Source: Planctomycetota bacterium (GTDB taxonomy: Bacteria; Planctomycetota; MHYJ01; WSZJ01). From it: a stretch of DNA of 64,000 nucleotides. Both the position numbers and the translations under genes were made by a program. The notes under the pieces are model-generated. The model was given only the letters and a program-made list of their open reading frames with translations, was not told where the DNA came from and did not search any database. This document shows, in pieces, positions 53,721 to 60,948 of the stretch (its first letter is position 1; every line of letters starts with the position of its first letter). Location: the NCBI GenBank assembly GCA_038060895.1, contig JBBTCT010000007.1, positions 132,023 through 196,022 of the forward strand. The letters are read 5' to 3'.

Positions 53721-54599
53721 TCAAGCTCTGCAACCGCAGCAGATGTCAAAGGTTATGGTGTATTTCGACCATGCCGGAGGTCGCCCCGGAGACCCGATTC
53801 CAGGAGCGGTGACTTTTGGAGCAAGGCCTCCCACCGTTTCGGCGGGCACCGCGGGAGCAATCTCGCGAGCGTCTACCAAACTGACTCGAGTCGGCACGCA
53901 ATTCCCTCGCTGGCACGGCGGCAAAGCTGAGCAAATCCCCTTCGCTCTTTCCTTGGCCCAAGCCTCCAGCAGGGCCATGACGACTGGAATGACCTTTGAC
54001 TGCTCGGCCGCGTCCAGCGGTGTCGTTCCGAATTCGATTCCTATTTCAATGACGGGTTCAGGCAAGGTCGCCGGGAGCGGCCAAGGCCAGCCGGTGGGTT
54101 TGTTGATGTGCGCAATTTTGCGCGTCAATTTAGCAGTCTCGCAATGCGACATCGATGGGAAAAACGCGTTCGTTGTCCTTCTCATTCGAGCGCAGACATT
54201 GCAGTTCGTTCCCAAGGGCCACGAAACAATGACGCCCGGAATGCCAGGGAACCCAGGAGGATTTGTCGTGGGTGACAGGTCGGATGGATCGATCCAGTCC
54301 AAGGGCAGAGCCGGACCGATTGGAGGCGCTTCTGGTGGCGGCGGCCATGGACCGGACGGAGGATTCCACAGCCTTCCTCCTGACGGCGGCGGGTCTCTCC
54401 AATCCGGCGGAACCGGCCCGAACGGATCTTCCGGAAATGGCTTGATGGCATCGTCGGGAAGCAAGACCTCGGCCGCAATTTCCGTCCGCGCGATCGCTGA
54501 TTGTGAGCCCAGTTGATCAAGTGTGACTGGGCGCGCGAGCATTGCCCTAGCGATGAGCGACTGCTCTACATCCTGGAAAAGACTACTTTGCGAAGACAT
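53721..54599 (-). CDS. Hypothetical Pro-rich, Cys-rich protein
   Basis: AGGAG RBS; Pro/Trp-rich linker; CNVC, C-x5-C-x4-C and terminal CCGC. Confidence 0.6.
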   Translation of the reverse strand: MSSQSSLFQDVEQSLIARAMLARPVTLDQLGSQSAIARTEIAAEVLLPDDAIKPFPEDPFGPVPPDWRDPPPSGGRLWNPPSGPWPPPPEAPPIGPALPLDWIDPSDLSPTTNPPGFPGIPGVIVSWPLGTNCNVCARMRRTTNAFFPSMSHCETAKLTRKIAHINKPTGWPWPLPATLPEPVIEIGIEFGTTPLDAAEQSKVIPVVMALLEAWAKERAKGICSALPPCQRGNCVPTRVSLVDAREIAPAVPAETVGGLAPKVTAPGIGSPGRPPAWSKYTITFDICCGCRA

Positions 54600-54640
54600 T
54601 TTAAGCTCCTGTGTTTCGATTCAGGGACTGCCACGAAAGG

Positions 54641-55324
54641 CTATTTGCAAGAACGCATCCTCACGCACCAGTCGAGCACCGTGTTCCACAAGCTGGCGAA
54701 CCTGGCCGCCTGAACTTCAGGCGACCGAAGGCCCTCTTCGATCGGGACGTTTCCGTCAACCTGCGGTCCTCCTACTCCTGTGGCTGCGACAAAGTCGGAA
54801 GTGGCCTTGTAGTGGTCGAGCCTGTTCGCCACGCGCCATTCTCGGTTCAGGTAGAGGAAGGCCTCGCTCGGCAGGAACCTCCGATGCGTCGGATCCTGAA
54901 ACGCCCAGTTCGACCTCAGCGCCGGGACAATGACGGTCACGAGCCCGCCCGGCTTGAGGATGCGCCAGCACTCGTCGAAGAACGCGAAGAAGAGGTCGCG
55001 GTCGCCGGTGGAGGCGGGGACGTCGCGGTAGTCCCCCTCGGGCGAGACGTAGACCATCGGGATGTGCTCGACGAAGTGCGAGCAGTGCAGTTCGTCAATG
55101 GAGCTGTCGGCCCAAGGCCAGGGGAACTTCATCAAGTTCACCCTGTGCTTCGCGTCCGCAAACATGTCCACGCCCTCGAAGCCCTCGCGGCAGGATTGAC
55201 CGCAGGCGAGATCGAGTTTGAGTTCGCGGGCGGGAGAGAGGACGACTTCCGGCGAGGAGGAGTCCGGTCCTTGGGCGGCCGATGGGTGCGTTTCATGGAG
55301 TGAGACGAGGGCATTTTCGCTCAT
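54641..55324 (-). CDS. SAM-dependent methyltransferase-like protein (Methyltransf_11-like type common in phages)
   Basis: AAGGAG RBS; LKLDLACG, PWPWADSSIDELHCSHFVEHIP, ECWRILKPGG, AFQDPTH. Confidence 0.8.
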   Translation of the reverse strand: MSENALVSLHETHPSAAQGPDSSSPEVVLSPARELKLDLACGQSCREGFEGVDMFADAKHRVNLMKFPWPWADSSIDELHCSHFVEHIPMVYVSPEGDYRDVPASTGDRDLFFAFFDECWRILKPGGLVTVIVPALRSNWAFQDPTHRRFLPSEAFLYLNREWRVANRLDHYKATSDFVAATGVGGPQVDGNVPIEEGLRSPEVQAARFASLWNTVLDWCVRMRSCK

Positions 55325-55338
55325 GGCAAGGCGCTCCT

Positions 55339-55755
55339 TTATCCGCAGAAGAAACGGGCAACGAGGGAGAAGATGGCCGGGTTGCCGCCCGACTCGACGG
55401 CCACGAAACGGACCTGGGCGAAGCTGTTCCCCGTGATGGCGGCGGAAGCGCTGTACCCGACCGCGGTGATCTGCAGCGCCGACCCTGCGTTTGACCAGTT
55501 GAGGCCGTTGTTGCTGACCTGGGCCTGGACGGCGGTCTGGAGCGAAGCGCCGAAGATCACGATGGCGACGAAGTCGAAGGCGTTCGCACCGTGGGTCGGA
55601 ATGGGAGGCGAAACCACGGTCCCGCTTGCCGCCAGGGCGAGCGGGTCCCAGACGGGTTCCGTGAACTGCGCGCCGCTGCCGCAGGGGGTCGCGGCGGAGG
55701 CGGATTCCGCCGCTGGGGCGGGCGAGCCTTCGCAAGAGCAACCGTTTCCGCTCAT
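55339..55755 (-). CDS. Small beta-rich virion-like protein, paralog D (Cys-rich N-terminus)
   Basis: SPPI..GANAF, QVSNNGLNWS, VGYS, FAQVRF; ATGA-coupled. Confidence 0.75.
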   Translation of the reverse strand: MSGNGCSCEGSPAPAAESASAATPCGSGAQFTEPVWDPLALAASGTVVSPPIPTHGANAFDFVAIVIFGASLQTAVQAQVSNNGLNWSNAGSALQITAVGYSASAAITGNSFAQVRFVAVESGGNPAIFSLVARFFCG

Positions 55756-59130: not shown

Positions 59131-59143
59131 GCAGGGCCAACAT

Positions 59144-59159
59144 TGCAACCGGAGTGCCG
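59144..59159 (-). promoter_or_regulatory. Sigma54 (-24/-12) promoter
   Basis: Minus strand CGGCAC-TCCGG-TTGCA: exact GG-N10-GC spacing, one mismatch to TGGCAC-N5-TTGCW; lies about 170 nt downstream of a bEBP gene. Confidence 0.7.
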
Positions 59160-59328
59160 GGATGGAGCCTGTGCCAAACAAGTCCGCAAGTCCTGACGCA
59201 GAAACGATTTCTTCACTCCCGATCAAAAACCTCGTTTCGCCTGGAGAAAGCAGATTTCACACCGCGAGCTTTCTGCGCTTTCTCATTCTTCAACATCAGG
59301 TGGAAAACATGACCCCGCGAAATGGCTC

Positions 59329-60948
59329 TCAGGCTTTCCCTGGATTCTCCTCAGGCCCTGCTACTTCGCTTCCGCGCCGAGGCCGGCGCGTCCTGCCCGC
59401 ACGGGGGATCAACCCGTATTTCTTGAACCGCTCCAGGGCCGCCTGCCGCGTGATGCAGAAAATCTCCGCCACCCCGTTCGTCGTGCCGTCCGACCTGCGC
59501 ACCGCGTCCAGAAAGACAGCCCGTTCCTCCACCTGTCGGGGATCGCCGGCGCCGGTGCCGGTCTCCTTCTCCCAGCGGGGAACGAGCGCGCGCAGCGCGT
59601 TGAACGAAATCGGGCCGGGCATGCAGGACAGGACGGCGAACTTCAGGAACGCGAAGAGCTCACGGACGTTTCCGGGCCAGGGCATGGAAATCAGGTACGC
59701 CTCCGCTTCCGGCTCGATCGATGGCGTGAAATTGGCGGGAAGACCTGTCGCTGTCGCGGCGCCAAGAAGGAAATGTGCGATCAGGAGGGGAATATCCTCG
59801 CGGCGCTCGCGAAGGGGCAGAACATGGATTGGGAACTGCATCAGCCTATAGAGAAGGTCTTCGCGGAACTGGCCCGCCGCCCGCATCGCACCCAGATCGC
59901 GCCGGGTTGCGACGACGATGCGCGCGCGGACGGGCACCGGGGTCGTGCCTCCGACCCGGCAGAGCTCCCGCTTCTCGAGGACCGAGAGCAGTTTCGACTG
60001 CAGTTCGAGCGGCACGTCCCCAATTTCGTCGAGAAGCAGAGTTCCCTTTCCGGCGGCTTCGAAACTCCCCGCGTGCACGGCGCCGGCGCCCGAGTAGCCG
60101 CCCTTTTCGTGACCGAAGAGTTCGTTTTCGATCAGGTTGGGGTTGAACTTGCTCAGGTCCACCGCGACGAACGGTTCCTTCGCACGCGCGGAATTCGCGT
60201 GGATCGCCTCTGCCACGCGTTCCTTGCCGGTCCCCGTCTCGCCGGTGATGACGACGATGGCCTCCGTCGGGGCAACTTTCAGGATCTGTCCGACGAGCGC
60301 CTGCCGTCCCGCGCTCTTCCCGAGAATTCCAGGGCAGAGATCTCCTGCTTTCACGACATCGGCCTGGGTGTGGATCGGCGGGAAGACCGCCTTGTGAAGA
60401 ACGCGGACCAGGTTCCCGTCTCGAATCTCCGTCGTGGCGGCCCAGGCGCGGGGCAACGCTTCCTGGACGCATTGATGCAAGACCTGAAAAAGCGCTTCCA
60501 GAACGACCAGCCGGCGCCCGGTCAGTTTTCGCGCATTCGGGCCGCGGGCGATCCCGAGGACGGCGACCGTTTTCCCGGACCACTCGAACGGGTAAAGAGA
60601 AATGCCCTGAGTTCCGGCCAGGACCGCCCGCTGCTCATCCGATGCATCTTTGGGAGGAGGAGAGACGTCCGGCGAAGTGAAGGCACAACCGAAGCGAAAG
60701 ACCGCCTGGATACGGTCGCCCGAAACGACGTTTCCCCCGGGGAATTTCGGATGTCTCACCGTCCTCGGCGCCACCAGGGGAATCGCCAGGGGACGATGAA
60801 CAAATGTGGCCGAGTGGGCCACGGTGGCCGCGACGATTCGGTTGAGCGTTTCCTCGACCGTCTGCCAACGGAGGGCGGAGTCGTGGGTCAGGCTCGAGTC
60901 CTGGAGGCGTCGTAGGCGATCGATCGCGGATTCGTGGTCAGGCCGCAT
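59329..60948 (-). CDS. Sigma54-dependent enhancer-binding protein (AAA+ plus HTH); start could be 61014
   Basis: GETGTGKE, ENELFGHEKGGYSGA, LLLDEIG, FREDLLYRL, WPGNVREL, C-terminal HTH-like VAEIFCITRQAALERFKKYGL. Confidence 0.92.
   Translation of the reverse strand: MRPDHESAIDRLRRLQDSSLTHDSALRWQTVEETLNRIVAATVAHSATFVHRPLAIPLVAPRTVRHPKFPGGNVVSGDRIQAVFRFGCAFTSPDVSPPPKDASDEQRAVLAGTQGISLYPFEWSGKTVAVLGIARGPNARKLTGRRLVVLEALFQVLHQCVQEALPRAWAATTEIRDGNLVRVLHKAVFPPIHTQADVVKAGDLCPGILGKSAGRQALVGQILKVAPTEAIVVITGETGTGKERVAEAIHANSARAKEPFVAVDLSKFNPNLIENELFGHEKGGYSGAGAVHAGSFEAAGKGTLLLDEIGDVPLELQSKLLSVLEKRELCRVGGTTPVPVRARIVVATRRDLGAMRAAGQFREDLLYRLMQFPIHVLPLRERREDIPLLIAHFLLGAATATGLPANFTPSIEPEAEAYLISMPWPGNVRELFAFLKFAVLSCMPGPISFNALRALVPRWEKETGTGAGDPRQVEERAVFLDAVRRSDGTTNGVAEIFCITRQAALERFKKYGLIPRAGRTRRPRRGSEVAGPEENPGKA

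Follow-up and report, generated by a model that had tools for sequence, protein, structure and literature searches.

The window, a 64,000-nt stretch of Planctomycetota DNA (positions 132,023 to 196,022 of contig JBBTCT010000007.1; G000:C7:132023-196022), comes from a metagenome-assembled genome (MAG) of 5.4 Mb that is 86.5% complete. Between about 53.7 and 61.0 kb, its minus strand carries a gene for a sigma54 activator, or bacterial enhancer-binding protein (bEBP), followed by a -24/-12 promoter and eleven tightly coupled open reading frames (ORFs). An earlier reading of the bare sequence, which we call the original prediction, had placed all of these elements correctly and had suggested that they may be a single domesticated module of phage-virion-like genes. 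We find instead that the cassette is one member of a genus-specific, multicopy, recombining family of regulator-gated cassettes derived from phage virion genes. From the regulator onward, the elements are:

59329..61014 (or 60948 from Met23), minus strand: gene for the sigma54 activator (bEBP); Pfam Sigma54_activat (PF00158) at 1.4e-56 and AAA_lid_14 at 2.8e-15
59159-59144, minus strand: -24/-12 promoter, CGGCAC-N5-TTGCA, scoring 10.5 of 11, with GG at 59158-57 and GC at 59146-45
58738-59130, minus strand: g1, an Arg-rich protein of 130 aa (86 aa from Met45)
58293-58751, minus strand: parA, a predicted jelly-roll paralog with a Cys-rich N-terminal tail (MPCCDGC...GC); DUF6385 at 0.0043, F5_F8_type_C_2 at 0.1
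57941-58273, minus strand: parB, a predicted jelly-roll paralog of 110 aa; Pfam Bbp16 at 0.061, F5/8 type C at 0.075
57194-57763, minus strand: g4, a 189-aa beta protein, hallmark of the cassette and proposed fibre dock
56529-57194, minus strand: g5, a 221-aa protein of apparent fibre or receptor-binding type, with a conserved N-terminus (MPTLRD...HESTHVSGGSD) and a variable C-terminal part of about 145 aa
56230-56532, minus strand: g6, 100 aa, 5 of them Cys; present here and in the C37 copy only
56102-56233, minus strand: g7, 43 aa, the C-terminal remnant of a glycosyltransferase-like gene of about 280 aa
55752-56102, minus strand: parC, a predicted jelly-roll paralog (alignment A2)
55339-55755, minus strand: parD, a predicted jelly-roll paralog with the N-terminal tail MSGNGCSC (alignment A2)
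54641-55324, minus strand: S-adenosylmethionine (SAM)-methyltransferase-like gene; phrog_6636 at 2.4e-5, Methyltransf_11 at 0.008, below the cut-off; kept in 6 sibling loci (fam6)
53721-54599, minus strand: g11, a Cys/Pro-rich protein of 292 aa, unique to the window locus

Coding regions overlap at six of the ten junctions: g1 and parA share 14 nt, g4/g5 meet in TAATG, g7/parC in TGATG, and g5/g6, g6/g7 and parC/parD in ATGA. At three further junctions a GGAG or AGGAG box precedes the downstream gene (parB, the methyltransferase gene and g11), and a gap of 177 nt separates parB from g4. All eleven ORFs that had been counted are present, but one of them, g7, aligns to the last ~34 residues of fam7, a family that is intact in the sibling loci L014, L022, L023 and L027 and that matches phrog_1574 at 1.4e-9 and phrog_12406 (glycosyltransferase) at 2.2e-5. 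We therefore count it as a scar rather than as a separate gene.

The hallmark of the cassette is g4. A search of a large protein collection yielded 93 homologs, all of them unnamed and outside any Pfam family. Close relatives (>60% identity) are confined to the genus of the window genome, and among 185,579 species genomes 24 of the 27 g4 loci lie in MAGs titled Planctomycetota, Planctomycetia or Brocadiia; homologs carry Planctomycetota MAG titles as well. Distant relatives (28-54% identity) occur in phage settings, and five IMG/VR contigs encode g4 homologs. In L009 the gene order is capsid (phrog_371), two genes, g4, one gene and a Neck1 / tail-completion protein, L012 has a major head protein (phrog_267) about 2 kb upstream of g4, and the g4 locus of L011 includes an internal virion protein gene. 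A module consisting of a capsid gene, a gene for a protein of about 260 aa (F2) and two to three tandem g4 paralogs recurs in five loci, two on viral contigs (L012, L013) and three in MAGs of Gemmatimonadaceae (L061), Sulfuritalea (L062) and Actinomycetes (L063). Twenty metagenome g4 loci of at least 5 kb included four with the capsid of this module and one with a fam8-like capsid, and none with a bEBP or par gene. Since relatives of g4 stand beside HK97 capsid genes in uncultured phages, the view that these are genes of phage-virion type is borne out, and the neighbourhoods indicate that g4 is of phage ancestry. Look-alikes of g4 found by a language model in the Atlas, which we take as a lead only, are Uroviricota clusters (0.98). 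Comparison with Bbp14 and Bbp12 of phage BPP-1 showed no relation.

The five loci with the capsid-F2-g4 module represent an apparently undescribed group of (pro)phages that have the phrog_267 capsid, the protein of about 260 aa and the 2-3 tandem g4 paralogs in common. In the loci scanned against PHROGs (L012, L063 and one ORF of L062), no ORF other than the capsid gave a match.

The gene that follows g4 is the second constant of the cassette. In all 23 genus loci it starts 0-5 nt past the g4 stop codon or overlaps it (TAATG/TGATG/TAGTG), and in all 23 its product begins M-[P/A]-[T/V/I/L]-[L/I/V]-[R/K]. The start M-[P/A]-x-x-[R/K] is shared although the remainder of the protein belongs to one of four unrelated families (g5, fam9, fam29 and fam16). 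Within the g5-type proteins, the first 25-70 residues are conserved and the distal parts have been swapped between copies, so that a beta domain of 145 aa in the window is replaced elsewhere by a Gly-rich region of 200-350 aa or by none, the fibre then being split into three ORFs. Phage fibres are built likewise, with a common anchor and exchangeable tips. Searches of Pfam, PHROGs and PDB profiles with g5 itself found no named fibre family; its Atlas look-alikes, again a lead only, are Uroviricota clusters (0.94), one of them with DUF5907/Mtd_N. In this pattern of conservation g5 behaves like a fibre or receptor-binding-type protein, in line with the fibre-like protein of the original prediction, and from the strict g4-fibre junction with its constant start peptide we infer that g4 may be a dock holding the fibre by its N-terminal peptide.

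The four small proteins had been called paralogs, correctly: pairwise tblastn gave 1e-5 to 1e-9, and parA to parD all align in A2. They belong to a large family, mostly of 105-115 aa, with 1482 representative clusters at E<=1e-3 and 361 at E<=1e-10. Among 109 family members, 56 match phrog_9522 and 28 match phrog_427, the matches to phrog_9522 ('major tail protein') covering its C-terminal domain only. Searched against the PDB, the par profile found modules of the CBM32 family (2jd9 at 7.5e-4, 4zy9 at 2e-3), with which par proteins have the motifs SNDxxNW and VRL(K)Y in common, and more weakly the BPP-1 cementing protein (3j4u_H, 0.12) and a capsid decoration protein (8cjz_B, 0.44). Among 12 BPP-1 structural proteins it picked the cement protein Bbp16 (15.6 bits; hhalign 49.5%, P 1.7e-4). 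Going by these weak scores, the par proteins are probably minimal discoidin-like jelly rolls akin to capsid cement proteins. With parA as a single query the best Pfam match is DUF6385, the two best DUF6385 matches in the genome are the two parA copies, and a 2026 paper (PMC13700489) describes DUF6385 as a single jelly-roll domain. By hhalign, g4 and par are not related, and the one sequence pattern with which we searched IMG/VR did not find the par family there.

Per locus, the N-terminal tail of one or two par proteins is rich in Cys, being of the form M-x-C-C-x-x-C-x(4-5)-C, G-N-G-C-S-C or a run of Cys. Three or more Cys within the first 25 residues were seen in 14 of 69 par-family ORFs as called, and in 14 of 21 loci, and in 62 of 4467 ORFs genome-wide; the par count is a lower bound because the gene caller cut several N-termini. 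Cys positions in the core are not conserved across the family (alignment A2). Two giant proteins in the representative library, P0174 (4410 aa) and P0226 (1546 aa), match the par profile over 12 and 5 stretches, respectively, so the par domain also occurs as a repeat in very large proteins. Some sibling cassettes encode another Cys-rich family, of about 170-200 aa with 4-6 consecutive Cys (L019:4680-5228, L024:3553-4071, L029:9676-10275); it sits at the distal end of cassettes with an M23 peptidase or five jelly-roll genes.

Within the window genome, tblastn identified three cassette loci: the window locus on C7, a copy at the contig ends C38/C37 whose g4 is 95% identical, and one on C22 whose g4 is 68% identical, each with its own upstream bEBP gene. 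A g4 query matched 8 of 41 related genomes, namely G000 and all 7 others of its genus, with 1-10 matches each; the 33 genomes from other genera of the order or class gave none. We fetched 20 further loci and called their genes with a codon model trained on G000. The synteny search in related MAGs that had been proposed thus returned the same architecture in 23 loci of 8 genomes. The core order is regulator, jelly-roll genes, g4, fibre-type gene(s), more jelly-roll genes, and a glycosyl- and/or methyltransferase gene, with modules shuffled between loci. One sibling form has an 88-aa piece corresponding to the g5 N-terminus, followed by fam4 and fam5, the last matching the tail-collar fibre phrog_1800 at 1.6e-16; another has fam9 and an intact glycosyltransferase-like fam7. 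In yet another, fam29 and fam28 are joined by a protein of 480 aa that matches Peptidase_M23 (4.7e-8), and five jelly-roll genes come after it.

A further form occurs in L031-L033, where two tandem HK97-type capsid proteins of 310 aa replace parA/parB. These match phrog_212 over the full length at 4.5e-25 and a SrpI-like Pfam family weakly (1.4e-3), and the fam8 profile picks the capsid protein Bbp17 among BPP-1 structural proteins. The cassette had been said to lack capsid, terminase, portal and integrase genes. This is correct for the window, and no terminase or portal match was found in five genomes of the genus, but it does not extend to the capsid genes of these three siblings. Distant fam8-like capsid genes (~30% identical), single or in tandem, are present in other families of the order (L064 = G009:C21; L065-L069); no g4 or bEBP was seen on their short contigs, and they may represent another capsid-only element.

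Comparing copies, we obtained pairwise NG86 estimates of the ratio of nonsynonymous to synonymous substitution (dN/dS) of 0.12-0.20 for g4 (0.35 against the distant C22 copy), 0.17-0.21 for parA, 0.07-0.20 for parB, 0.09-0.12 for the methyltransferase gene, 0.24 for g5, 0.28-0.39 for parC (0.7 against a 50%-identical copy) and 0.30-0.53 for parD. Only the g7 scar, measured on 41 codons, reached 1.9. The cassette genes are under purifying selection. Between C7 and C38/C37, dS is 0.11-0.16 for g4, g5 and parC and 0.9-1.3 for parA, parB, parD and the methyltransferase gene; the g4-g5-parC segment has therefore been exchanged recently, and the same exchange of the middle segment accounts for the truncated glycosyltransferase gene, g7.

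The cassettes are linked to regulators. Among the 23 g4 loci of the genus, a same-strand bEBP gene lies upstream in 15 and a gene for an extracytoplasmic function (ECF)-type sigma factor in 3; the other 5 are cut by a contig end, so that the linkage is kept in 18 of the 18 loci that have upstream sequence. The ECF-type genes include fam22, which matches Sigma70_r4_2 at 5.1e-10, and L028 has a related protein of 197 aa. We scored promoters against TGGCAC-N5-TTGCA (maximum 11, GG and GC required, threshold >=9). Thirteen of the 15 regions between a bEBP gene and the first structural gene (15.6 kb in total) contain a site at or above the threshold, against the ~0.7 expected because the genome-wide rate is 0.044 per kb and strand. 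A sigma54-type site is also present in the capsid-containing form (L031), and the genome has rpoN (Sigma54_DBD at 9e-62, on C10). The N-terminal part of the window bEBP, about 230 aa, has no known domain.

In two siblings, L018 and L034 (G000:C22), the L1 loop of the bEBP has diverged strongly, with MGY-x-K-x-x-HS-x-A replacing FGHEKGAFTGA, and a good -24/-12 site still lies downstream (scores 10 and 9.5). Upstream of the window promoter, a repeat search located the following element:

59244..59284, no strand: inverted repeat of 8 nt without mismatch, GAGAAAGC/GCTTTCTC, situated some 90-140 nt upstream of the promoter

A second perfect inverted repeat, of 7 nt (GAAACGA/TCGTTTC), lies at 59201-59238, which places the two repeats 60-140 nt upstream of the -24/-12 element. 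Both are possible activator sites and could have arisen by chance. A scan for terminators found 13, not above shuffled sequence (8.3 +/- 2.8). In two RNA-library runs (X11 and X12; window 53700-61100), contigs agree letter for letter with parts of the bEBP gene, g1/parA, g6/g5, parD, the methyltransferase gene and g11; one that covers part of g4 differs by 1 letter and two others by 7-16. Contig depth was only 2-3, a DNA run of the same study had a similar depth and DNA carry-over is possible; these contigs are too thin, and we do not count them as evidence of transcription, nor do we read anything into the parts without coverage.

The cassette lies in an island of atypical composition:

52796..61678, no strand: low-GC island of 8.9 kb, 54-69% G+C in 500-nt bins, in a host operon of around 72%

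Genome G+C is about 72%, and the composition profile falls below this across the island. The island splits two genes of a conserved minus-strand operon of very large proteins (window 42067-52795 and 61679-64000), comprising an open frame of about 1431 aa that runs off the window and then proteins of 1966, 890 and 723 aa. Of the operon proteins, a 752-aa part and the one of 1966 aa were scanned against Pfam, and neither showed a domain. In G006 both flanking genes are only 57 bp apart and the site is empty, and in G003 and G004 the same site is filled by unrelated inserts of 5-6 kb; the gap after the first gene of the operon is an insertion hot spot. G002, the closest relative as judged by the flanking gene (91% identity), has an orthologous cassette at the same site, with an ECF-like sigma gene in place of the bEBP gene and a middle part consisting of an intact fam9 and a glycosyltransferase gene. 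From the empty site in G006 and the orthologous cassette in G002 it follows that the cassette was inserted, then inherited and then remodelled. The island ends have no att-like direct repeats, flanking repeats or tRNA. The large genes at its flanks (752 and 1966 aa) are unrelated to the genes beside the C38 copy, and the two copies have no common flank.

We compared the cassette with known phage-derived systems, none of which matched it. Profiles for Terminase_6N, TerL_ATPase and Phage_portal had no match in G000, G001, G004, G005 or G007 (81-89% complete), and the control genomes matched. The island ORFs scanned against Pfam, PHROGs and NCBIfam include no integrase, replication, primase, packaging, lysis or helper-interference genes, and no Pfam or PHROG match to sheath, tube, baseplate, spike or tape-measure was found in the window ORFs or the sibling families scanned. 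The original prediction had set the cassette apart from prophages, gene transfer agents (GTAs), tailocins and extracellular contractile injection systems (eCIS), and our scans, in which the genes that define these were not found, agree. To our knowledge, the phage parts known so far to have been domesticated are tails (tailocins, eCIS and type VI secretion systems (T6SS)), heads with packaging (GTAs) and bare shells (encapsulins).

Like tailocins, eCIS and T6SS, the cassette is phage-derived and non-replicative, has swappable fibre or receptor-binding parts and answers to a host regulator, and some T6SS likewise use a sigma54 activator. Its parts, however, come from head-proximal and fibre modules and match no sheath, tube or baseplate. 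GTAs also keep head-type phage genes under host control without replication genes, but the cassette has no terminase or portal match, occurs in many diverged copies with their own regulators and is restricted to one genus. The likeness to encapsulins is closest in L031-L033, which encode two HK97-type capsid proteins behind a host-type regulator, with no portal or terminase found. The best match of these proteins is nevertheless a phage major head family and not an encapsulin family, and the window cassette has no HK97 gene, nor does G000 match Linocin_M18 or the SrpI-like family. We know of no fibre genes and no fibre dock from encapsulins.

The individual parts also differ from their nearest counterparts. 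The par proteins are of about the size of phage cement or decoration proteins (~110 aa), and their profile picks BPP-1 Bbp16 and, weakly, 3j4u_H and 8cjz_B; yet there are four to five paralogs per locus, some of them Cys-tailed, and no capsid gene in the window cassette or its genome. Their best solved-structure matches and shared motifs are those of CBM32 and F5/8 type C (discoidin) modules, whereas par proteins stand alone without an enzyme and score below Pfam cut-offs. Like phage tail fibres, g5 and its replacements share an N-terminal peptide and differ distally, and the sibling fam5 matches tail-collar families, but the cassette has no tail to which a fibre could be anchored and g5 belongs to no named fibre family. 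In the literature searched on Planctomycetes sigma-54, capsids, DUF6385/DUF6143, domesticated phage tails and encapsulins, we found no such cassette described. Altogether it lacks what would place it among prophages, encapsulins, tailocins or eCIS, GTAs, Ena filaments (considered below) or satellites, and we file it with phage structural genes co-opted under host regulators.

We propose, tentatively and at somewhat less than even confidence, that the cassette as a whole makes a DNA-free, fibre-bearing assembly on cue. The bEBP would sense a cue through its unique N-terminal region and switch on the sigma54 promoter, and the coupled operon would yield near-stoichiometric products that self-assemble in the cytoplasm into a DNA-free particle or filament bearing fibres. 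In this assembly g4 would dock the fibre through its N-terminal peptide. The jelly rolls would form or cement the body, perhaps cross-linked via their Cys tails, and in some sibling cassettes two HK97 capsid proteins would form the body instead; the methyl- and glycosyltransferases may decorate the structure. The swapped tips (a beta domain here; Gly-rich, collar or M23 peptidase elsewhere) suggest binding to other cells or surfaces, for adhesion or antagonism. A broader version, that these cassettes define a new class of organelle-like DNA-free particles or filaments with their own sensor-regulators, Cys-linked cement jelly rolls or HK97 shells, fibres on a g4 dock and a recombining library of 3-10 cassettes in each genome, we consider doubtful at present.

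Several observations weigh against this proposal. The par family matches CBM32 and Bbp16 with weak scores (under the Pfam cut-offs, 15.6 bits, hhalign 49.5%), g4 and the C22 counterpart of g5 (g5') had no match in 50,697 deposited phage genomes, and the g4, g5 and fam8 profiles found nothing in the PDB. In real phages g4 is not adjacent to par-like genes, and G000 gave no match to Phage_capsid, phrog_212, Linocin_M18, the SrpI-like family or the fam8 protein, the phrog_212 and SrpI-like negatives being weak as no control genome matched; with no capsid-type gene in the genome and g4 away from par in phages, the parts may not form one structure. The cassette has no secretion or lysis gene and, as had been noted before, none of the eleven proteins has a signal-peptide-like hydrophobic N-terminus as read from the sequence, which leaves an extracellular role without a route. 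The L1 loop of the window bEBP reads GGYSGA, not GAFTGA, and among the 15 cassette bEBPs nine loops are canonical and six non-canonical; in the 19 other bEBP matches of the genome the loop always fits G[A/S]F[T/S][G/D]A, and in 16 it fits the stricter G[A/S]FTGA. Substitutions to Y and S in the GAFTGA loop can be tolerated. Sigma54 control is also not universal, as the nearest species (G002) has an ECF-like sigma gene at the same locus. All genomes compared are MAGs, 81-94% complete, so absences are provisional, and the dock, the body, the cross-link, the steps of assembly, the location and the target are all things that we infer from sequence.

A further point against the proposal is that the low G+C of the island and a site that is otherwise empty would suit a mobile element as well; the 'host programme' of the original prediction therefore has to be weighed against a 'mobile cassette'. 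In the form of a satellite-type cassette, whose regulator senses infection and whose products become part of a helper phage's virions or decorate them anew, supplying other fibres, fibre docks and capsid cement and so changing host range or stability, mobility would explain the site that is empty in G006 and otherwise filled in G003/G004, the mosaic exchange between copies, and fibre tips swapped like phage host-range cassettes. Every recognisable part has a virion counterpart, and the genome has no capsid gene of its own for the cement-like proteins. We nonetheless judge this unlikely: scans of the island ORFs brought up neither an integrase gene nor genes for replication, packaging or helper interference, the lack of terminase or portal matches in 5 genus genomes leaves no resident helper, and the locus has been kept at the same site in two species. 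The cassettes differ from known satellites in that a genome has 1-10 matches and every locus comes with a bEBP or ECF sigma gene of its own, and neither par nor the g5 N-terminus occurs in any phage-type g4 locus. Homology to virion proteins could also serve an anti-phage device, in which virion look-alikes (a decoy dock, fibre or cement) made on a signal poison or mis-assemble incoming phage; many defence loci, too, exist in several copies, diversify fast, sit on islands and are regulated one by one. Scans of the window ORFs, however, revealed no domain of nuclease, NTPase, toxin or other effector type (Pfam, PHROGs and NCBIfam; PADLOC was not searched), a decoy would not need strict g4-fibre coupling or intact receptor-binding-type tips, including the M23 peptidase, and methyl- and glycosyltransferases suit a finished structure better, all of which makes this improbable.

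The virion likeness could alternatively be ancestry only. In a non-viral surface or filament system, jelly rolls with a glycan-binding, CBM32-like fold would polymerise into a fibre by disulfides of their N-terminal Cys peptides, with g4 and g5 forming a tip fibril, much as in the Ena filaments (DUF3992), the endospore appendages of Bacillus. According to a preprint (bioRxiv 10.1101/2020.08.21.260141), Ena subunits are jellyroll proteins of 117-126 aa with a 15-residue N-terminal connector in which a Cys-Cys forms disulfide bonds to a core Cys. The cassette likewise encodes several single-domain paralogs of about 110-150 aa per locus, one or two of which (parA and parD in the window) have a Cys-Cys or Cys-x-Cys N-terminal peptide with a spacer, and includes modifying enzymes; for par, both the fold and the disulfides are putative. 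On the other side, Pfam Enas (PF13157) had 0 matches at E<=1 in the genome, the core Cys of par are not conserved, no export route is present, the phylum is another one and no spore is involved, and the HK97 capsid genes that replace the first two jelly rolls in siblings fit a shell better than a pilus. Overall we regard an Ena-like filament, too, as unlikely, to a degree similar to the satellite-type cassette. A prophage, intact or decaying, was rejected, with no integrase, terminase, portal, capsid or lysis genes among the island ORFs scanned and dN/dS at 0.07-0.5. Even a decaying remnant that has no function of its own and happens to lie beside an unrelated bEBP gene, already disfavoured, is very improbable: virion-type genes without a head, tail or packaging set, the g7 scar and the atypical G+C would fit, but every gene tested other than the 41-codon scar has dN/dS of 0.07-0.5, the ORFs are intact and translationally coupled, and 23 loci in 8 genomes repeat the architecture, with a regulator in 18/18 and a sigma54 site in 13/15. 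The original prediction had named decay, with no conserved linkage to the bEBP gene, as an outcome that would speak against it; we observe selection and conserved linkage.

If the proposed assembly on cue is correct, the head-decoration and fibre part of a virion has been co-opted, in many diverged and recombining copies, each wired to its own regulator. Were the products to assemble, they would constitute a new self-assembling scaffold with exchangeable binding tips, would give a function to two large unknown families (g4 and the jelly rolls of about 110 aa), and would provide a handle on cell-cell interaction in uncultured groundwater Planctomycetota. Under the new-class reading, a single planctomycete could respond to different cues with binders or killers that differ in their targets. 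The strict g4-fibre coupling predicts a docking interaction relevant to a group of uncultured phages even if one of the rival explanations holds.

The methyltransferase that had been predicted is a weak call, with Methyltransf_11 below its cut-off and phrog_6636 at 2.4e-5; its profile found only TaqI methylase in the PDB (E 0.08), and a PDB search with the fam7 profile gave nothing usable. Nothing supports g6 as the possible chaperone that had been suggested. An NCBIfam search of the window ORFs returned nothing, and g1, g6 and g11 match no family in Pfam, PHROGs or NCBIfam. A second copy of g11 was not found in the genome, and g11 is probably not part of the cassette core. A homolog of g1 in L016 is 53% identical over residues 38-130. 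Two further genes lie within the island:

61146..61607, minus strand: ORF of 153 aa upstream of the bEBP gene, from the gene call, with no Pfam match
52999..53493, minus strand: GspG-like pseudopilin gene, Pfam T2SSG at 3.3e-18, outside the conserved cassette

The pseudopilin gene is absent from sibling loci and sits in the lowest-GC part of the island (54%).

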